DNA of 17,708 bases from a virus (taxonomy: Duplodnaviria > Heunggongvirae > Uroviricota > Caudoviricetes): the IMG/VR virus record IMGVR_UViG_2706794691_000004. One strand, 5' to 3'. This document shows, in pieces, positions 1-14,658 of the stretch (positions are counted from its first letter, which is position 1; each line of letters begins with the position of its first letter). Both the position numbers and the translations under genes were made by a program. Under the pieces are notes generated by a model, which saw nothing but the letters and a program-made list of their open reading frames with translations, did no database searches and had not been told where the DNA came from.

Positions 1-919
1 ACTGGCCGATGACATACAGCGCCCATTTGTCCACATCCGCCGCACCAAGACGTTTCCCCATGCCGTAGCGCGGGTGGGTCAGCATATCCCACAGACACCA
101 GGCCATGTTGTTGCTGTATGCTGGTTTTAACGTTCCGTCCCAGATACCGCTGTATTGTCGCGTCTGCGGGTTATAGTTCGACGGCACCTGCAGAATGCGC
201 CCGCGAAGATGATAATTACGACTCACCTGCTGGCTGCCGAACTGCTCCGAGTCCACCTGTACGCCGACCAGTGCAGTGTTCGGGTAGCACTGTTTCACAT
301 CGATGATTTCGGTGTATGACGACCAGAGCGTTTTGTTCTGCAGCTGGTCTGTGGTGCTGTCCGGTGTCATCCTGCGCATCCGGATACTGAACGGGCGCGG
401 AGGCAGGTTATCCACCACCACCGAGACCAGATACTGCGAGGTGGTTTTGCCCTTAATGGTGATGTCTTTTTCCGTCACCCAGCCACCGTTACGCTGTATC
501 TGAACCAGCAGGCGGACTTCCGACGGATTCCTGTCTCCCTTTGAGGTGGTTTCCACCAGTGCCTGTACACCGAAGGTAAAGCGCAGACGGTCGATGTTTG
601 CCGACGTGATGGTCCGGGTGATCGGCGTGTCATATTTCACTTCCGTACCCAGCACCGTCTCGGAGCCGGAGGATTCAAACCCCTCCGGCGGTGACTGCTC
701 CTGCTCACCTGCCCGGAACACCACCGTGACGCCGGAGATGTTGGTATTCCCCTCATTGTCCAGCACCGGCGTACTGTTCAGCAGCACGCTTTTTAATCCA
801 TCCACCGGACCTTCAACCGGCCCTTCGCTGATGGCATCGATCACACTCAGCAGCTGCGTGGACTTCAGGTTGTCCTTCGCTTCGCGCGGGGTATGCCCCT
901 TACTGCTGCCTTTACCCAT
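1..919 (-). CDS. J: Tail tip / host-specificity protein J, N-terminal ~306 codons (continues beyond window start)
   Basis: Minus-strand ATG at 919-917 translates to MGKGSSK... and runs open to the window edge ending ...NNMAWCLWDMLTHPRYGMGKRLGAADVDKWALYVIGQ; matches the lambda gpJ N-terminus as I recall it. Not in the ORF track because every plus-frame ORF here is antisense. Confidence 0.9.
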   Translation of the reverse strand, partial: MGKGSSKGHTPREAKDNLKSTQLLSVIDAISEGPVEGPVDGLKSVLLNSTPVLDNEGNTNISGVTVVFRAGEQEQSPPEGFESSGSETVLGTEVKYDTPITRTITSANIDRLRFTFGVQALVETTSKGDRNPSEVRLLVQIQRNGGWVTEKDITIKGKTTSQYLVSVVVDNLPPRPFSIRMRRMTPDSTTDQLQNKTLWSSYTEIIDVKQCYPNTALVGVQVDSEQFGSQQVSRNYHLRGRILQVPSNYNPQTRQYSGIWDGTLKPAYSNNMAWCLWDMLTHPRYGMGKRLGAADVDKWALYVIGQ

Positions 920-941
920 TCCTCACGCTCCATAAACGACA

Positions 942-962
942 AAACCGCCCGCAGGCGGTTTC
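942..962 (-). other. Stem-loop in the I-J spacer (AAACCGCC-UGCG-GGCGGUUU on the mRNA, followed by a U-rich run)
   Basis: Inverted repeat read directly; sits in the 60-nt gap between the I stop (980) and the J start (919). I believe the same hairpin exists in lambda. Confidence 0.4.
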
Positions 963-979
963 TCATAAAACATTTTGCA

Positions 980-1627
980 TCAGCGACCAATCACCACAAC
1001 CTGACCACCATCCCCTTCGTCTGCCGTGCTGATCTCCTGAGAAACCACACGTGACCCCACGCGCATTTCCCCGTACAGAACAGGCAGAACATTACCCTGG
1101 GCAACCATGTTATCCAGTGACGAGAAATACGTGTTCTGTTTGCCGTTATCTGTACTGGCTGCCGTGGGCGTCCTGGCTTTCGGTGCCAGCATCTGCGCCA
1201 CACCACCCAGGATCATACTGGCCCCTGCTGCATACATACCCGATACAGCCGCGGCCCCCAGCCAGCCCACAGGGTTCCACCATGCCACCGCAATCAGCGC
1301 CGCACCCAGCACCGCCTGAAACACACCGCCACTTTTGGCACCCGCCAGACGCGGAACGATGTGGATCACGGCACCATTTGCCAGCGGTTCATTAAGACGG
1401 GCAGATAATTCATTTTCGCCTGCATCACGCCCGGCAATGCGCACCTGATACCAGCCGTCGCTCAGTTTCTGACGAAATGCCGGGAGCTGTGTGGCCAGTG
1501 CCCGGATGGCTTCGGCCCCCGTTTTCACACGAAGGTCGATGCGGCGGCCAAATCGCTGCAAATCCCCGTAAAGGCAGATGCGTGCCATGCCCGGTGACGC
1601 CAGAGGGAGTGTGTGCGTCGCTGCCAT
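980..1627 (-). CDS. I: Tail tip assembly protein I
   Basis: 215-aa ORF MAATHTLPLASPGMARICLYGDLQRFGRR...VVVIGR; near-identical to lambda gpI as recalled; start overlaps the 3' end of K by 103 nt. Confidence 0.9.
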   Translation of the reverse strand: MAATHTLPLASPGMARICLYGDLQRFGRRIDLRVKTGAEAIRALATQLPAFRQKLSDGWYQVRIAGRDAGENELSARLNEPLANGAVIHIVPRLAGAKSGGVFQAVLGAALIAVAWWNPVGWLGAAAVSGMYAAGASMILGGVAQMLAPKARTPTAASTDNGKQNTYFSSLDNMVAQGNVLPVLYGEMRVGSRVVSQEISTADEGDGGQVVVIGR

Positions 1628-2268
1628 TTGTCGGTGTACCTCTCTCGTTTGCTCAGTTGTTCAGGAATATGGTGCAGCAGCTCGCCGTCACCACAGTAAA
1701 TGGCGGCATGATTCGGCACCGATGAACCAAAGCAGCACAGCAGCACATCGCCCGGCTGCGCCGTTGACAACGGCACCTGATACAGCCCTGTAGCCTCCAG
1801 ATTATCCAGATAGAGATTCTGACCATTACGCCACCAGTCGTCCTCACGATGAAAATCTGGCATCTCAATTCCCGCCAGATGGTAAGCGTCCCGGAACAGC
1901 GTGTAACAGTCCGTCACCCCGTGCTCAAAGCGCCGCCCGGTGAGATGCGGCACACAGCGGAACTTATGAATCGCCCCCCGGCAGACCAGCCACCACGGCA
2001 AATCACTCTGCACCTGCAGCCGCCGGTCGGCCTCACTCAGCCAGGGCAGACCACCGGGGTGGCTGTGGACCAGCGCCACAATCTCACCCTGCATCTCTGC
2101 CTGCAGCCAGTCCTCCGGAGCCATCCGGAAATACTCCTCCGGCTCACCGGAAATATTCACGCAGGGAAAATATCTTTCCCCCTCCGGCGTTCTCACCACG
2201 AAGCCGCACGACTCCGCTGGCGCACATCGCCGGGCGTGCGCCAGAATCGCTGATTCTGTCTCTGTCAT
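1525..2268 (-). CDS. K: Tail tip assembly protein K (JAMM/MPN metalloprotease-like domain plus NlpC/P60-like Cys-His domain)
   Basis: Start taken at MTETESAIL (2268), 4 nt after the L stop. JAMM-like motif HSHPGGLPWLSEAD; C-terminal GVTDCYTLF...HAAIY resembles NlpC/P60. An alternative internal start at M49 (2124, MAPEDW) would give 199 aa. Confidence 0.85.
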   Translation of the reverse strand: MTETESAILAHARRCAPAESCGFVVRTPEGERYFPCVNISGEPEEYFRMAPEDWLQAEMQGEIVALVHSHPGGLPWLSEADRRLQVQSDLPWWLVCRGAIHKFRCVPHLTGRRFEHGVTDCYTLFRDAYHLAGIEMPDFHREDDWWRNGQNLYLDNLEATGLYQVPLSTAQPGDVLLCCFGSSVPNHAAIYCGDGELLHHIPEQLSKRERYTDKWQRRTHSLWRHRAWHASAFTGICSDLAAASTFV

Positions 2269-2272
2269 GGGA

Positions 2273-2971
2273 TTACTGCGAAAGTTTGTTAATGGAAAGG
2301 AAGCCGCCAAAGTTGCCGACGTTATTGCGGAACTTACAACCGCTCAGGCATTTGCTGCATTTATCCTTCGTGATATCGGACGTTGGCTGGTCATATTCAT
2401 CCGCGACAGCCGGACCGTGATAACCGCACTCATCACCGCGATAGGTCCAGGTGCAGGTATTAGCAAGCATGATGCGCCCCGGAAAAACAGCGCCGTCCGT
2501 TTCCGTCGGCGTGGACAGTACAAAGGAGGCACTGACCGCGCTCAGTTCGCTGCACTGCTCAATACGCCAGCGGCTGATCACCTCCTGCTCCGGATCGGCG
2601 TCACTGTTTCCGTTGACGAAGTTCACCGCATCCAGAAAACGGGCGTAAACCTTACGCCTGACCACCGTTCCGCCGACCAGACTCTGCAGGTCTTCCGCCA
2701 TCCCGGTGACCATGCCGTGCAGATTAGAGACTTTCAGCGTTGGCCTTGCACTGGCACCTTTGCCGTTCATCTCAAATCCACTCCCCTGAATGGGATAGGC
2801 CTGATACTGCCGACTCTGCCAGGTGACAGACTCTCCTTTCTCGTTCTGCTCATTGCAGAAAAAGTAGCGATCCCCGCCTACCTCGGTCAGGTCGATTTCC
2901 CAGAGCACCACGCTGGCCGACTGCTCCGCACGAATGCATTCATTCAGCGTTTCCTGTTGTATGTCCTGCAT
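2273..2971 (-). CDS. L: Tail tip protein L
   Basis: 232-aa ORF MQDIQQETLNECIRAEQSASVVLWEIDL...; lambda gpL-like as recalled; its ATG overlaps the TGA of the upstream M-like gene by 1 nt. Confidence 0.9.
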   Translation of the reverse strand: MQDIQQETLNECIRAEQSASVVLWEIDLTEVGGDRYFFCNEQNEKGESVTWQSRQYQAYPIQGSGFEMNGKGASARPTLKVSNLHGMVTGMAEDLQSLVGGTVVRRKVYARFLDAVNFVNGNSDADPEQEVISRWRIEQCSELSAVSASFVLSTPTETDGAVFPGRIMLANTCTWTYRGDECGYHGPAVADEYDQPTSDITKDKCSKCLSGCKFRNNVGNFGGFLSINKLSQ

Positions 2972-3267
2972 CAGATCACCACTTCGTCAAACTGACACGA
3001 AAAATCGGTATAGGTGATATGTTCTGTCGCTGACCACGTTCGACACACCACTCTGATTTTTCTGTTAATACCCGGCGGGCGCCAAAAAAAAGATTTATAG
3101 CCTTCATGCCGGGCTAAAAATTTTTCAAATGAATCACGTTCATTCGCCTCAACTTTGAAATCACAGGTGAAAACGCGCAGAGAATGATTAAGTCCATTTG
3201 GACTTCGTTGCTCATAACCATCACCAAATCTTACAGTTTTTATCGATGGTTTATTTTCTGTTTTCAT
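2971..3267 (-). CDS. Tail tip protein M-like (divergent from lambda M)
   Basis: Start chosen at MKTENKPSIKTVRFGDGYEQ (ATG 3267, preceded by GAGGA); the track's longer ORF begins at a GTG at 3309 that overlaps the tape measure stop. Shares the VRFGDGY...KSF.W.PP pattern and a ...EVV C-terminus with lambda gpM as recalled, but is clearly diverged. Confidence 0.7.
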   Translation of the reverse strand: MKTENKPSIKTVRFGDGYEQRSPNGLNHSLRVFTCDFKVEANERDSFEKFLARHEGYKSFFWRPPGINRKIRVVCRTWSATEHITYTDFSCQFDEVVI

Positions 3268-3301
3268 TCCATCCTCTGGTAACCAGTGAAATTCTTCCGT
3301 A

Positions 3302-6300
3302 TTAGCCACTTAACATTCCCCCATCACGTCGCATATTTAACAGATTGCCCTGCACCCGCTGATCAACCATCCCCATAAGTGCTTTTATTGCCTGAGGGCC
3401 AATCTCTCCATTCTGGCCGTCATTTTGAATAGTGATTTGGTATACAGGGGCATAGGTAATATCTCCGCCTCCATTACCACTTTTACTATTAATAGCTCTG
3501 ACACCAAGAGAACCATCGGAAGTTCGTGTTAATGGCATAATGGCTTCCGGTCCAGCCTCACCAAAAACACCAGCCCCTTTTGCAAAAGCAAAAAATTGCG
3601 GGGAATCATAAATACCGTTCGAATACGTGCTCAATGACGGAGACTCATAAACACCGCCCTTTGCATTCGGAATAAATTTACTAATAGCACTCCCGATAGT
3701 TCCTAAAATCCCCCCAGAAGAACTGTTACTAATGCTGTCGAAAATCCCAGTAATTGAAGCCTTTAATGCTATTCGACTAAGATCCGAAATCACGGAAGTA
3801 GCGAAAGAACGAAAATTTGCCTTGCCTGTCGTGACAAAATCACCCAGCGCATCGGTCATCCCATCAAACATCTGAGTCGTGGTTGATTTTATCTGCTCAC
3901 TGATATCCTTAGTGTCATCCAGCCAGTTATTGAATCCCTGGGAGGCACCACTAACCCAGTCTCCTGCCTGAATATCGAGCTGCTCGTTTTTCTGTCTGAC
4001 AATTTCTTTTTCCCGTTCCAGAGCATCATTCAGAGCCTGCATTTTCTCTTGAAAAACATGATCTGACATTCCACGGGATTTATCTGCATAGTCACGTTCA
4101 AGTTGCAGACGCTGATTGTTATATCCATGTTCAATCCGCAGTAATTCCTGCTGGCGNNNNNNNNNNNNNNNNNNNNNNNNNNNNNNNNNNNNNNNNNNNN
4201 NNNNNNNNNNNNNNNNNNNNNNNNNNNNNNNNNNNNNNNNNNNNNNNNNNNNNNNNNNNNNNNNNNNNNNNNNNNNNNNNNNNNNNNNNNNNNNNNNNNN
4301 NNNNNNNNNNNNNNNNNNNNNNNNNNNNNNNNNNNNNNNNNNNNNNNNNNNNNNNNNNNNNNNNNNNNNNNNNNNNNNNNNNNNNNNNNNNNNNNNNNNN
4401 NNNNNNNNNNNCCACTTAACCAGTTCCTGTTCAGAGGAACTTAATTTAACGGTCAACTCAGCTTGTGAACTTAGTAACGCATTCTGTTGATTCAGATGAT
4501 CAATCATTCGTTGGGCTGCATCATCAGAATAACCTTTCGCCTTTGGTTGCTTTGGATCTTTATAACGCTCATTTATTTGAGCGATAAGATTATTATATTC
4601 TTCCTTTGAATACTGATTCTTTAGCTTTTCCAGTTTTGCAAGTTCACTAGCTCTCTGCTGCTCCCGGGTCTGATATTGTTTTGAAAAGGCATCTGCTCTC
4701 TGTCTGAGTTCAATTCCTTCCTGTTGTCGCTTGTTGTAATCGTTTATTGATGAATTTAGTACGTCCTGAGCAATTTTTTCTGCTTGAAGTACGCCCAATT
4801 GCTGCTTTAATCGTGCCAGCCTTTTATTTTGAGCTCCGCCATCTCCAATGCCACCTAACCCGAAAACTCCGGGTCGGGTATTTTTTTCTATTTCATCAAT
4901 TTGACGGAGAACATCTGAGATTTTTTGATCAAGGGAGGCCTCACGGCCAATATCCAGCATGGAATCCCATGCCCATTTTGCGGAGTCTGCGACAGCTTTC
5001 CATGCAGTCTCAAGATAACCAAGATTTTCTTTAATCTGGTTGGTGCGCTGGATCATTGAGGATGAGTATTCTTCTGTCGCAATGCGGGCGGCCTCCTGCT
5101 GGTTCCCTTCATCCTGTAGCGCCTTAATCTGGTTATAAGTCGCAAGTGTCAGAAAATGGTACTGATCATTAAGTTTTGATATGGCACTGACAGGATCCTT
5201 TGCAATTTCATTGAAGTCATTAACCAGTTGTTCGGTTGATATTCCTGTTACTTCGCTCGTTTTTACTATCGCTGTCGTCACTTGCTCCAGCGAACTGCTC
5301 GCTACCTTTCCCGAACGCACAAGCTGATTTAATACTGCCGCCGCAGCACCAGTTGTCGAATCAGCCGCATTCCCGGCACGTTGAGCTATATCGCCCAATT
5401 GCCCGCTGGTTGTCCCCAACTGATTTCCGGTAAGAATAAGAGATTTATTAAATTCGTCCTGCTCCTGAGAGCCTTTATAGTAAGCCAGTCCTAAGACCCC
5501 AACGGCTGCTGCGGCCAGGGTAAAAGGATTAATTAATCCCAGCACATAAGAACCTACACCTTTGATCGCCGGGCCAATCCCACCGAACATATCTTTTAGC
5601 TGGCCGCCCTGCTGCATTAACACCATAAATGGCGACTGACCAGTGGACAACCCAACAACAATATCCGTCATTTGTACAGGCAACATGCGCATAGCAAAAG
5701 CCGTTTGTTTTGCCGACATTCCGGTTTTGCTTAATTGTGATTGAGTAACCTCAAGCTCACTCCGCATAGCACGAAGTTTTCCAGAAAGCTCCTCATACAT
5801 TTCAGGAGAAAGCATCCCCTTAGCTTTTGCTTCATTGAGCTGTTTCTGTTGTTCTACCAGACGATTAAAAGCAGTTCCGACAGGATCAAGTTGAGCAATC
5901 AGACGTTGCAAAGCAACAACCTGTTCATCATGCGCTTTTGCTGCTTCTCGCTCTGCCTGAGCCTCTCCGGTAAGCTCTCGCCGTGTTTCCTGTATTTTTC
6001 GGCTATAATTCTCAAACTGAGAACCATTTATTTTCCCGGATGCAAACGCAGCATTAAGTTCATCATGCTGTTGTTCAAGATTTCTTAGCGCCGCAGCCAG
6101 AGGGTCGATCTTGTCCAGCATTCTTTGAAAGGCCTGAGCCTGCGCTTNNNNNNNNNNNNNNNNNNNNNNNNNNNNNNNNNNNNNNNNNNNNNNNNNNNNN
6201 NNNNNNNNNNNNNNNNNNNNNNNNNNNNNNNNNNNNNNNNNNNNNNNNNNNNNNNNNNNNNNNNNNNNNNNNNNNNNNNNNNNNNNNNNNNNNNNNNNNN

Positions 6301-6555
6301 NNNNNNNNNNNNNNNNNNNNNNNNNNNNNNNNNNNNNNNNNNNNNNNNNNNNNNNNNNNNNNNNNNNNNNNNNNNNNNNNNNNNNNNNNNNNNNNNNNNN
6401 NNNNNNNNTGTTGCCTTAGTCACTTTCCCTGCGCTATTTGCAGCAGTTTCCCCAGCCTGCGTCATTTTGACTAATGAGGAGGTCAGATTGTCAGCATTAT
6501 TTTTCGCTCCAGTGCTATCAATAATTATTGCGAGACGCGAGGTTTGCTCTGCCAT
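3302..6555 (-). CDS. Tail tape measure protein (about 1080 aa, interrupted by two N runs)
   Basis: ATG at 6555 preceded by AGGAG; N-terminus [14 protein letters not shown]...; [37 protein letters not shown] matches the conserved lambda gpH N-terminal motif as recalled; long Q/E/K-rich coiled-coil middle; C-terminus ...[38 protein letters not shown] resembles the lambda gpH C-terminus. Frames on either side of the N run at 6148..6408 differ. Confidence 0.85.
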
Positions 6556-6573
6556 TTATTAAAACTCCTGACA

Positions 6574-6600
6574 ACAAAAAACCCACCGCGAAGTGGGTTT
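6574..6600 (-). terminator. Intrinsic-terminator-like hairpin immediately upstream of the tape measure RBS
   Basis: mRNA reads AAACCCAC-UUCGCG-GUGGGUUU followed by UUUUGUUGUC, then AGGAG and the tape measure ATG. Confidence 0.5.
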
Positions 6601-6720
6601 CAGGCGACATAATAGTAGATATAGCGATTACGAGGCCACGCAATGCTTTTCTCCAGGAGCATCATCGATTTAATTAAAGACACCATCACATCTCTGTAAC
6701 AGAGTGTACGTAATTAACAA

Positions 6721-7478
6721 CTACACACACTGCTCCTGAAAATACTGGTCATCCAGTGCAAAGATCACTGCTTCAAATTCATCGCGCTCAATCAATACCG
6801 GATGAGTGGCTAAATATTCATTTATCTCTGTCAGAGATAAAGGCAAAGGCACCCCAGCCATTCCAGCATAACGTCGGGCACGGGATATTACCGAATAGGC
6901 GTACAACAACTCCTTAAGCACCGGGTCTATTTCTGGTTCCGGTATCGGTGGCAACCTGAGTTTTTCTCGCTTCCATCTTGCCTTTTCCCCCCTTTCTCCC
7001 CCGAACTCCGATAACCACCGCTGGGCAGCTATGGCTTTTTTATCGTATCCTGCTTCTGCTGCTCTTTACCCTGGGCGATGCTGGCTGCTTCTGCAAGGAT
7101 CTGCCAGTACAACTCTGGATTCTGCTTAAGCAGCGCGATCCCTCGTTCTGCCGTATATTCCAGTGCAACCTCAACACCATTAACCAGTTCACCAACCCCT
7201 TTCCAGTCTTTCAGCAGATAACGAGCGGCATTATCAATGAGTAAATCATCAACAGAATCCACCTCGGAAACCTTTGAAATATCAAACTCCTTCGTTCCGA
7301 CGTGCAAACTGGCATCCATTTTCTCAATGTGGCGACGGATTAATGCATTACGGGAGCGATACTGATCGTTATCGCTGCTTGCCACCAACAGTTTTAACCC
7401 GTCTACAGGTTTTAAGTCCTTCATTGGCGTAAACCAGCGTTCTCCACCAATGATAATTTTCTGATTAAGAATAAACAT
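6721..7478 (-). CDS. Tail assembly chaperone G-T fusion product made by programmed -1 frameshift
   Basis: The -1 frame relative to G is open from the slippery site to a TAG at 6721-6723, encoding ...KK/AIAAQRWLSEFGGERGEKARWKREKLRLPPIPEPEIDPVLKELLYAYSVISRARRYAGMAGVPLPLSLTEINEYLATHPVLIERDEFEAVIFALDDQYFQEQCV; position between major tail and tape measure genes matches the conserved G/G-T arrangement. Confidence 0.7.
7029..7478 (-). CDS. Tail assembly chaperone (lambda G analogue)
   Basis: Start at MFILNQKIIIGGERWF (ATG 7478, GAGGT 5 nt upstream); acidic ~149-aa protein; stop TAG at 7029-7031. Confidence 0.75.
   Translation of the reverse strand: MFILNQKIIIGGERWFTPMKDLKPVDGLKLLVASSDNDQYRSRNALIRRHIEKMDASLHVGTKEFDISKVSEVDSVDDLLIDNAARYLLKDWKGVGELVNGVEVALEYTAERGIALLKQNPELYWQILAEAASIAQGKEQQKQDTIKKP
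7035..7041 (-). other. Slippery heptamer A_AAA_AAG for the -1 ribosomal frameshift, two codons before the G stop
   Basis: mRNA reads ...GAU ACG AUA AAA AAG CCA UAG; the heptamer is the same class as the E. coli dnaX shift site. Confidence 0.65.
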
Positions 7479-7538
7479 CCATAACCTCATTCAATGCGTC
7501 CCCCTGTAGGGCAGTACCACAGGAGGAATAACGGAAAA

Positions 7539-8301
7539 TCAACTAATCGCCTCAGCACTGGCTTTTGCGATCACGGCAGCCGGGGAATTTTTTTTTCTGG
7601 TTATCGTAGGTGCTTCATCTGCTGCGGTAATGCTCAATTGAACCTGGATAATGTCGCTATTACCCCCATCAGGCCATTCACCTGACACCTGAACCTTCGG
7701 GAAACTGAAAGTGTATGCCCCCTCTCCATTCGAAAGCGTGAAGCTGAACGGAACTGTTTCTCCAGTCAGTGTTTTACTCCAGATTTCCCACGCGGCTTTA
7801 GACCATGANNNNNNNNNNNNNNNNNNNNNNNNNNNNNNNNNNNNNNNNNNNNNNNNNNNNNNNNNNNNNNNNNNNNNNNNNNNNNNNNNNNNNNNNNNNN
7901 NNNNNNNNNNNNNNNNNNNNNNNNNNNNNNNNNNNNNNNNNNNNNNNNNNNNNNNNNNNNNNNNNNNNNNNNNNNNNNNNNNNNNNNNNNNNNNNNNNNN
8001 NNNNNNNNNNNNNNNNNNNNNNNNNNNNNNNNNNNNNNNNNNNNNNNNNNNNNNNNNNNNNNNNNNNNNNNNNTTGACCCCAGCGAAATTTGGTACCAAC
8101 ATCACCGCCGACATCCACAGTGCCAGGCGTCGCCCCCTGAGCCATCCGGGAGCCACCAATCTCATTATTTTCGCCTTTATTCTGGGTGGGTTTTACTCCC
8201 CAGCTTGTGCGTTTTAATAAACTCCAGTCACCACTTGCTGGCGTAGTGCCTGCAACCGTCTCCCGGATAAATGCCGAGATAACCTTTGCACCTGAACTCA
8301 C
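7539..8301 (-). CDS. Major tail (tube) protein, interrupted by an N run
   Basis: GTG start at 8301 with AGGAGG 6 nt upstream (MSSGAKVISAFIRETVAGTT...); C-terminal segment ...FSFTLSNGEGAYTFSFPKVQVSGEWPDGGNSDIIQVQLSITAADEAPTI; located directly upstream of the chaperone gene. Frames differ across the N run at 7809..8073. Confidence 0.7.
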
Positions 8302-9491: not shown

Positions 9492-9803
9492 TCACAACCC
9501 TGACTTGTGAGCGACTAAGTCCGTACGGNNNNNNNNNNNNNNNNNNNNNNNNNNNNNNNNNNNNNNNNNNNNNNNNNNNNNNNNNNNNNNNNNNNNNNNN
9601 NNNNNNNNNNNNNNNNNNNNNNNNNNNNNNNNNNNNNNNNNNNNNNNNNNNNNNNNNNNNNNNNNNNNNNNNNNNNNNNNNNNNNNNNNNNNNNNNNNNN
9701 NNNNNNNNNNNNNNNNNNNNNNNNNNNNNNNNNNNNNNNNNNNNNNNNNNNNNNNNNNNNNNNNNNNNNNNNNNNNNNNNNNNNNNNNNNNNNNAGTGAT
9801 CAT
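9492..9803 (-). CDS. Probable head-tail adaptor, almost entirely masked
   Basis: ATG at 9803 preceded by GGAG; only MIT... and ...RTDLVAHKSGL are readable; rest is N (9529..9794). Confidence 0.3.
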   Translation of the reverse strand: MITXXXXXXXXXXXXXXXXXXXXXXXXXXXXXXXXXXXXXXXXXXXXXXXXXXXXXXXXXXXXXXXXXXXXXXXXXXXXXXXXXXXXXXXXXRTDLVAHKSGL

Positions 9804-13248: not shown

Positions 13249-14658
13249 TGATTTCCATCAGCATTACACTCTGATTTTTTAATTCATCGATCACTTCCTC
13301 TGGACGGGAATCCTGATCGATAAATTTCAACGCCTGCAACACCCGAACCGCATCAATCTGACGTATATCACCGCCCTGACGCAATGACTGAACAGCCAGC
13401 GCGGAGGATGAGTCAAACACCTGGGCAGATACATCCAGTTCAGTGCGCACATCCACATTGCCACCGCAACTCTCTCCGATCCATTCCGCCATTATCTGGA
13501 GAATATTATCGAGGGCATCTTCGAGGGAGTTCGCCATTGTATAAAGCGGCGAGTTTTCCTGCATTCGCTCTTCATTAGTCTGATCAACAGATTTGGTGGA
13601 TGTATTTTCAGCACGCAGNNNNNNNNNNNNNNNNNNNNNNNNNNNNNNNNNNNNNNNNNNNNNNNNNNNNNNNNNNNNNNNNNNNNNNNNNNNNNNNNNN
13701 NNNNNNNNNNNNNNNNNNNNNNNNNNNNNNNNNNNNNNNNNNNNNNNNNNNNNNNNNNNNNNNNNNNNNNNNNNNNNNNNNNNNNNNNNNNNNNNNNNNN
13801 NNNNNNNNNNNNNNNNNNNNNNNNNNNNNNNNNNNNNNNNNNNNNNNNNNNNNNNNNNNNNNNNNNNNNNNNNNNNNNNNNNNNNNNNNNAGATTAAGCA
13901 ATGGCGGTGTACCACGCATAAATCCTGTTTTCTTCGTGTACAGTGTTACCAGAGGAATATCATCACGGCTGGTATTCCATGACTCATGAAGCGTCCAGAC
14001 AGATTNNNNNNNNNNNNNNNNNNNNNNNNNNNNNNNNNNNNNNNNNNNNNNNNNNNNNNNNNNNNNNNNNNNNNNNNNNNNNNNNNNNNNNNNNNNNNNN
14101 NNNNNNNNNNNNNNNNNNNNNNNNNNNNNNNNNNNNNNNNNNNNNNNNNNNNNNNNNNNNNNNNNNNNNNNNNNNNNNNNNNNNNNNNNNNNNNNNNNNN
14201 NNNNNNNNNNNNNNNNNNNNNNNNNNNNNNNNNNNNNNNNNNNNNNNNNNNNNNNNNNNNTCTTTCATATCCGTTCGTGGATAGTCCACCAGCGCATGTG
14301 CCACACCATACTGAAATGCGAGGCTGAAAAATTGCTGCGCCCACACATCCAGTCGGCTCCCCTCCATGTCGATATTTTCTGCATATTCCCTGATTTTTGC
14401 CGGCGTTTCCTCACTCAATACTGTCGGCTCTGCAAATATGCGCCCAATATTTTGCTTGATGCTTTCTTCATACACAGGAAGTAGCGTAGCCACAGACAGG
14501 CGTTTTTTATAAGCGTCTTCATCTTCGTTAGGCCATTTTGGGAGATAATTTTCCCCCTGCCTGCGCATTTCAAGCGTACCGCCCATCAGTGCGTCGTTAA
14601 TATCCCACGCCTCCAGCATATCGTTATAGTCGAGGTTGGGTGTTGATATATCAGCCAT
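13229..14658 (-). CDS. Portal protein (interrupted by two N runs)
   Basis: ATG at 14658, 2 nt after the large terminase stop; N-terminus MADISTPNLDYNDMLEAWDINDALMGGTLEMRRQGENYLPKW...; about 475 aa; canonical position after the large terminase. Confidence 0.65.

Follow-up and report, generated by a model that had tools for sequence, protein, structure and literature searches.

The window analysed here is a stretch of 17,708 nt from a tailed phage (Caudoviricetes; IMG/VR record IMGVR_UViG_2706794691_000004) and carries a module of head and tail genes of siphovirus type. If runs of N are left aside, Salmonella phage SPF_0923 shares most of the window at about 99–100% identity and several E. coli phages do so at about 98%; for positions 1..4156 the identity is 95.6%. 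The window holds six N runs, the lengths of which differ from those of the real sequence; one (7809..8073) interrupts the tail tube gene and two (6148..6408 and 4157..4411) interrupt the tape measure gene. Both genes appear to be split because of these runs, and a true split was rejected as an artefact of N runs of the wrong length; the tape measure gene is a single CDS of 1077 aa in SPF_0923. The segment 6409..7808, which includes G and T, contains no N and matches SPF_0923 at 100% identity. The genes are arranged in the order tube, G, T, tape measure, followed by lambda-like minor tail genes, and the order from tube to tape measure is the same in SPF_0923. The coordinates are given in Table 1.

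Table 1. Features of the G–T region and its neighbours, with positions numbered along the window.
Feature	Position	Strand	Basis or remarks
Tail tube (major tail) gene, directly upstream of G	7539..8301	minus	Pfam Phage_tube_2, PHROG 290; SPF_0923 CDS
Gene G (ydaY family), putative tail assembly chaperone	7029..7478	minus	149 codons + TAG; PHROG 313
TAA in the -1 frame, closing it upstream	7066..7068	minus	sequence
Slippery heptamer A_AAA_AAG	7035..7041	minus	codons 147-148 (Lys-Lys), X_XXY_YYZ register, followed by CC
T segment	6721..7035	minus	104 codons in the -1 frame + TAG 6723..6721; PHROG 1189
Predicted G-T fusion coding region	6721..7478	minus	148 + 104 = 252 aa
Tape measure gene, downstream of T	3302..6555	minus	TMP_2 (E 1.4e-82), Tape_meas_lam_C (E 2e-27), PHROG 24

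G starts at the ATG 7478..7476, preceded by a GAGG at 7488..7485 with a 6-nt spacer, and the GenBank CDS for this gene in SPF_0923 has the same two ends. On the minus strand, the 3' end of G reads GAT ACG ATA AAA AAG CCA TAG, with the stop codon at 7031..7029. The original prediction placed the heptamer two codons before this stop, and reading of the sequence confirmed this: its AAG is the second codon ahead of the TAG, in the zero-frame X_XXY_YYZ register. Read from G7035, the -1 frame translates as AIAAQRWLSEF...QEQCV, i.e. AIAAQRWLSEFGGERGEKARWKREKLRLPPIPEPEIDPV...QEQCV, a run of 104 sense codons ending at a stop that lies 104 codons past the heptamer and 102 codons past the G stop, so the claim that this frame is open for about 102 codons beyond G, down to position 6721, is upheld by translation. 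The two reading frames overlap by 34 nt. The -1 frame is closed upstream by the TAA at 7068..7066, and a productive shift is therefore confined to 7065..7029. The predicted junction is ...DTIKK|AIAAQRW... (junction-spanning sequence, DTIKKAIAAQRW; junction peptide, QDTIKKAIAAQR), and both this peptide and the fusion length of about 250 aa that had been anticipated agree with the 252 aa obtained here. For the -1-frame stop frequency of 0.080 found in the CDSs of SPF_0923, a run of 104 stop-free -1 codons has a probability of about 1.7e-4, and the longest other -1 open run within these CDSs is 73 codons. The copy of A_AAA_AAG at the end of G is the only one in register among the 18 CDSs of this phage, which is identical to the window at the locus.

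The profile searches proposed in the original prediction gave a family for each of the two parts. G has its match in PHROG 313, a family described as 'tail assembly chaperone' (E 4.9e-46), where it aligns to positions 15-149 of a profile with 258, and T matches PHROG 1189, a family of 'unknown function' (E 1.4e-36). T also matches positions 173-246 of PHROG 313, weakly (E 0.0097), and this profile seems to take in fused G-T proteins, because G covers its positions 15-149 and T, weakly, its positions 173-246. Against the Pfam family PF23812 (Phage_TAC_18), T scores 20.7 bits (E 4.7e-4), below the gathering cut-off of 27 bits; the same family is matched by 9 of 20 relatives at E < 0.01, with a best value of 1.5e-4, which suggests that T is distantly related to Phage_TAC_18 and not a member of it. 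No match to G was found in the local Pfam copy, in NCBIfam or among PDB sequences. The protein database gives G the precomputed label PF27119.1, an entry that is absent from the local Pfam copy. The AlphaFold models are of low confidence (pLDDT 60 for G and 62 for T), and the structural neighbours of the G model are tail assembly chaperones, fold matches that are only suggestive at a pLDDT of about 60. The assignment of G as a tail assembly chaperone is supported by its family and by its position between the tube and tape measure genes.

How T is translated can be approached through the way in which the sequence varies. Variable sites were counted by codon position over 48 distinct sequences. 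In the body of G they are distributed as 71/55/137 over the three positions of frame 0. Over the 80 nt that separate the heptamer from the first candidate start of T (TTG 6954), the excess is found at the third position of the -1 frame instead (11/11/25); this change of frame coincides exactly with the heptamer, and the -1-frame wobble periodicity persists through the remainder of T. The first 40 or so residues of T are conserved as protein (AxEAQKWLxEFGGExGEKAKWRREKLxLPPIPEPEID). No in-frame ATG, GTG or TTG precedes T codon 26 in any of 16 relatives, and in Klebsiella, Raoultella, Providencia and Scandinavium there is no in-frame start before codon 49-59. Because the stretch ahead of the possible starts evolves as -1-frame coding sequence and holds no start codon in any relative, the view that T is made only as part of a 252-aa G-T fusion, through -1 ribosomal slippage, is supported; the original prediction had argued for the same conclusion from the lack of an ATG and of a separate ribosome-binding site. 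These two arguments stand in part. T has no ATG start, as had been said, but one in-frame ATG does exist (6861..6859); it encodes Met59, an invariant residue within the conserved motif YAGMAGVPLPLSL, and is not a start. Similarly, the absence of a separate ribosome-binding site is not strictly correct, as a TAAGGAG lies 4 nt upstream of the in-frame TTG 6906 in the window, although this motif is not conserved among relatives.

It is the presence of this TAAGGAG that accounts for the GenBank start of T at TTG 6906, and it speaks for a different reading, in which T is a small independent gene with an internal start of its own (TTG 6906, TTG 6954 or GTG 6921) and the heptamer is incidental. GenBank and RefSeq annotate T in this way, and AAAAAAG as such shows no enrichment (5 copies over the two strands of the window, with 4.2 expected). 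This reading leaves unexplained why the 27 codons ahead of the first possible start should carry -1-frame periodicity and be conserved as protein across genera. The candidate starts vary in position and in type, gene callers assign T products of 60-138 aa with inconsistent starts, and several relatives have no candidate before codon 49-59; the heptamer, for its part, is retained in register in every close relative and toggles only between two canonical slippery sequences, as described below. An independent T gene is consequently considered very unlikely. Two further readings go beyond the fusion itself: in the E. coli/Salmonella lineage there may be three products, the third being a 61-aa C-terminal T fragment started at TTG 6906 behind the TAAGGAG, or the tail-less Rac remnant of E. 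coli K-12, in which slip site and T ORF are intact, may still give rise to a YdaY-T fusion with an acquired host-related role. These are together regarded as improbable, if a little less so than the independent gene.

The slip site is conserved. A_AAA_AAG was found in register in 80/80 IMG/VR loci with 79-100% protein identity, even though the distance from the heptamer to the zero-frame stop differs among them (3, 21 or 105 nt). A survey of other genera, based on bacterial contigs with one genome per species, yielded 16 informative loci. Eleven of these, from eight genera, have A_AAA_AAG at the homologous codon: Shigella, Escherichia (E. ruysiae), Citrobacter (four species), Siccibacter, Providencia, Dryocola, Scandinavium and Entomohabitans. 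A Klebsiella phage likewise has this heptamer at the homologous codon. Raoultella, Serratia, Pantoea and Rosenbergiella have the lambda heptamer, G_GGA_AAG, at the same codon position, so that one or other of the two sequences is present in 15/16 loci, and the -1 ORF is 87-111 codons long in all 16. The family is a clean natural example of A_AAA_AAG and G_GGA_AAG swapping at a single codon position. Non-canonical sites were found in Pectobacterium (G_GGG_AAG), Erwinia phage Gungnir39 (GCA AAG TAA) and Pseudomonas phage Aurca01 (G_GAA_AAG), all three of which keep the A-site AAG; since some relatives lack a canonical heptamer, the mode of slippage is not uniform across the family. When the predicted fusion was searched against phage genomes with tblastn, 44 records were matched, 30 of them by both G and T, in two frames in every case, and the other 14 by the T part only. 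The two-frame matches extend to Klebsiella (65%), Erwinia (55%), Pseudomonas syringae phages (about 32%) and Acinetobacter phages (about 31%), and the two-frame layout with a slippery heptamer at the same codon is kept from E. coli to Providencia.

This distribution also bears on whether the two frames might be the debris of a single ancestral G-T gene, broken by a 1-nt homopolymer indel or by a sequencing error, with no recoding. The window is a prophage with masked stretches, E. coli K-12 keeps only a remnant of the module, and homopolymer-type frame errors do occur in some database proteins of this region (P0002, P0004). Yet the same two-frame layout is found in 1073 complete E. coli genomes and in isolated phages, out to Pseudomonas and Acinetobacter, and G always has a stop of its own, at a varying distance from the heptamer. 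In-frame fusions are rare: among the matches listed, the only in-frame G-T fusion is P0001 (5 member sequences, one contig), which arose by deletion. Decay or error is accordingly extremely unlikely, because the two-frame layout is conserved.

Taken together, the tail-assembly-chaperone gene of this siphovirus very probably undergoes programmed -1 ribosomal frameshifting. The layout, the family and position of the gene, the conserved slip motif, the coding constraint in the -1 frame and the lack of start codons are shown by the sequences; that ribosomes slip here, and how often, is inferred. Most ribosomes would translate G (149 aa) and halt at its TAG, whereas a minority would slip with the Lys codons AAA AAG (7040..7035) in the P and A sites; both tRNA-Lys would re-pair one base back, on A_AAA_AA, and 104 further codons would be read in the -1 frame, giving the 252-aa G-T protein. 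In E. coli, few heptamers are as prone to shifting as A_AAA_AAG, and of the 3' contexts tested, CC, as present here, is the most shift-prone (PMC5009743; PMC4066793). The heptamer owes this property to the single E. coli tRNA-Lys, which pairs better with AAA than with AAG.

The same G-T product could in principle be obtained by transcriptional slippage, if RNA polymerase added one A within the A6 run: six consecutive A residues are present, and a single extra residue would lead into the same frame and to an almost identical protein. However, efficient transcriptional slippage in E. coli needs A/T runs of about 8-9 or longer, and A6 falls short of this. A_AAA_AAG is, moreover, a proven ribosomal shift site, and the relatives with G_GGA_AAG, which has only three A residues, fit tandem tRNA slippage and not polymerase stuttering. 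Since these relatives have only three A residues, polymerase slippage is unlikely as a general mechanism, and for the present locus it is judged highly improbable.

For the ribosomal frameshift, stimulatory elements were sought on both sides of the heptamer. A single-sequence fold of the 85 nt downstream (7034..6950) was no better than those of shuffled sequences (z = +0.59), and the only hairpin in it starts 0 nt after the heptamer. RNAalifold detected no conserved helix in 16 diverged relatives (consensus -2.45 kcal/mol, no covariation). A downstream RNA structure was rejected as a stimulator on the strength of the shuffle test and the consensus fold. Upstream, an AGGA lies 6 nt ahead of the heptamer in E. 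coli, Klebsiella and Citrobacter and is absent in Siccibacter, Serratia, Providencia and Rosenbergiella; this Shine-Dalgarno-like element was set aside as a stimulator, as it is not conserved among relatives. With no conserved RNA stimulator, a low slip rate is expected, of a few percent, as for lambda and the HK97-type chaperone. The lambda G:GT ratio is about 30:1 (PMC5009743), and a cluster of tail assembly chaperones similar to an HK97 protein showed 6-7% frameshifting in experiments (PMC3711429); the latter is probably the A_AAA_AAG cluster of ECs1801 described in PMC4066793. The functions of the two products can be proposed by analogy only, because homology to lambda G and T is undetectable. 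If lambda G/GT is taken as the guide, coating of the tape measure protein would fall to the G part, which both products share, and recruitment of the tail tube protein to the rare T part; the slip rate would determine a GT:G ratio that is fixed and low.

G corresponds to ydaY of the Rac prophage. The Rac remnant of E. coli K-12 is 100% identical to the window over 7380..6700. This stretch comprises a shortened ydaY, the heptamer and the complete T ORF, and ynaA, what is left of the tape measure gene, comes after it. The ydaY region is present in 1073/5426 complete E. coli genomes. In the RefSeq and GenBank records inspected, G is named 'protein YdaY' or 'hypothetical protein' and is frequently annotated too short at its 5' end; in strain F11, for example, YdaY is annotated from the TTG at codon 31 although the prophage holds the full-length ORF. 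In the same records, T is a 'hypothetical protein' with an arbitrary start or is left unannotated, and none of them records a G-T join. The two genes pheL and ydaY were reportedly named by Gurvich et al., in 2003, as new candidates for utilised A_AAA_AAG frameshifting. No link between ydaY and frameshifting was found in the literature searched, which did not take in that report of 2003, and the ydaY site has probably been reported before. The mechanism is textbook, and a distant member of the family, from phage TRS1, is already annotated with a join. Nothing changes conceptually, since long-tailed phages are known to conserve the G/GT frameshift. The value is practical and consists in an annotation fix for ydaY, T and PHROG 1189 that concerns the 1073 E. 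coli genomes mentioned above; recording the G-T join would assign a function to a y-gene and to PHROG 1189.

Several known systems can be compared with the ydaY locus. One is the conserved -1 shift of lambda G/G-T at G_GGA_AAG (Levin, Hendrix & Casjens 1993; Xu, Hendrix & Duda 2004, 2013, 2014, to the extent that they are summarised in PMC5009743). As in lambda, the genes lie between the major tail and tape measure genes and would give a short product and a -1-extended one, the shift site is no more than a few codons away from the G stop, no RNA structure that might stimulate slippage was detected, and some ydaY-family relatives use the lambda heptamer itself at the same codon. The differences lie in the heptamer, which is A_AAA_AAG here, and in the length of T, which has 104 codons, versus about 140 in lambda. 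In profile comparison, neither G nor T showed detectable similarity to its lambda counterpart (hhalign probability of about 0.1% for both), and homology to the lambda proteins was rejected on this result. The original prediction of a conserved G/G-T arrangement in a non-lambda chaperone is in keeping with all of this: the family and the gene order bear it out, without profile similarity to lambda G/T.

The HK97-type chaperone (PDB 2OB9) and ECs1801 of E. coli O157 Sakai Sp9 resemble the present case in three respects: A_AAA_AAG is again placed right where the chaperone ORF ends, the -1 extension beyond the stop is likewise 102 codons long, and the gene context is the same. ECs1801 has been placed in cluster A_AAA_AAG_25, classed as 'tail assembly chaperone [true]' (PMC4066793 Table S4), and in GeneTack cluster #10. 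G and T, in contrast, show no BLASTP or hhalign similarity to ECs1801. Identity with cluster A_AAA_AAG_25 was rejected, as the Sakai Sp9 region is without similarity and represents another family of chaperones, HK97-like, that has the heptamer in common with G.

Acinetobacter phage vB_AbaS_TRS1 (TRS1_18/TRS1_19) is closer in sequence: its T part is 38.8% identical to fusion residues 170-249 (E 4e-6), and A_AAA_AAG stands close to the 3' end of its G gene and leads into an 83-codon -1 extension, the whole lying just downstream of the major tail gene. Its heptamer is located 19 nt before the stop, as opposed to 3 nt here, and, unlike the ydaY records, the TRS1 record already joins the two parts in one tail assembly chaperone CDS. 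In the tblastn search with the predicted fusion, the G part of TRS1 was not matched, and the membership of TRS1 in the same G family rests for that reason on related Acinetobacter phages such as TCUAN1.

Finally, dnaX of E. coli, the source of the gamma and tau products, shares the identical A_AAA_AAG heptamer, which is decoded by the single E. coli tRNA-Lys. The cassettes differ in design: in dnaX, a Shine-Dalgarno-like stimulator upstream and a hairpin downstream flank the heptamer, shifting reaches about 50% and the shifted product is the shorter one, whereas the ydaY family has no conserved hairpin and an upstream AGGA that is not conserved, and its predicted shifted product is the longer one.

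At a single codon position, homologous to window positions 7035..7041, the slippery heptamer of the tail assembly chaperone gene G alternates between A_AAA_AAG and the lambda-type G_GGA_AAG among genera of Enterobacterales (the loci contrasted are listed in the table). Non-canonical sites were found in Pectobacterium (G_GGG_AAG), Erwinia phage Gungnir39 (GCA AAG TAA) and Pseudomonas phage Aurca01 (G_GAA_AAG), the A-site AAG being the only part kept in these three. A natural fusion of G with T, its -1-frame extension, in one reading frame is provided by the 240-aa E. coli protein P0001 (NB16F79_39920), in which ...ILAEA runs directly into the -1-frame GYDKKAIAAQ... because a short segment immediately 5' of the heptamer has been deleted; the prophage encoding it would make GT only, and no G.

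Internal initiation within T may yield a further product, a candidate 61-aa T fragment starting at the in-frame TTG 6906, which is preceded at a distance of 4 nt by TAAGGAG and is the T start chosen by GenBank in the near-identical Salmonella phage SPF_0923. The Shine-Dalgarno-like match ahead of this TTG was absent from all 15 relatives scanned. Downstream of T, no ORF was called in the 165-nt gap before the tape measure gene, and the corresponding interval in Klebsiella, Pseudomonas and Acinetobacter relatives holds one to several small inserted genes.

Coordinates of the features and loci compared (window positions unless a locus is named)
Feature	Location	Strand	Remark
Heptamer comparison	L098, L101, L102, L103		versus L090-L095, L099, L104-L106, L108
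YdaY CDS, E. coli F11	L088 2613..2972		
YdaY CDS, E. coli K-12	L087 2993..3352		
YdaY CDS, window equivalent	7388..7029		
TAAGGAG and TTG within T	6904..6917	-	
Gap, T stop to tape measure start	6556..6720	-	165 nt
N runs (n = 6)	4157-4411, 6148-6408, 7809-8073, 9529-9794, 13619-13890, 14006-14260		
Sp9 ECs_1801/ECs_1802	L089 20002..20681		E. coli O157 Sakai

Several head genes, together with those for the tape measure and the tube, look split or frameshifted only as an artefact of the runs of N, which have the wrong lengths; comparison with SPF_0923 showed, for example, 265 N in place of 465 nt. Public gene models also depart from the sequence. The RefSeq 'protein YdaY' CDS of E. coli F11 begins at a TTG that is codon 31 of the 149-codon ORF, despite the presence of the full-length G gene in this prophage, and this short model seems to be a copy of the truncated K-12 model carried over in annotation. 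T is either unannotated or given an arbitrary start in the records inspected. Protein database entries for G homologues carry the precomputed Pfam label PF27119.1, and a search with G of a Pfam set without this family gave no match.

ECs_1801/ECs_1802 of E. coli O157 Sakai prophage Sp9 are presented in RefSeq as two genes with no join. They encode an HK97-like tail assembly chaperone that is unrelated to G but has the same heptamer at its end, in the form A_AAA_AAG TAG, with a -1 extension of 102 codons.
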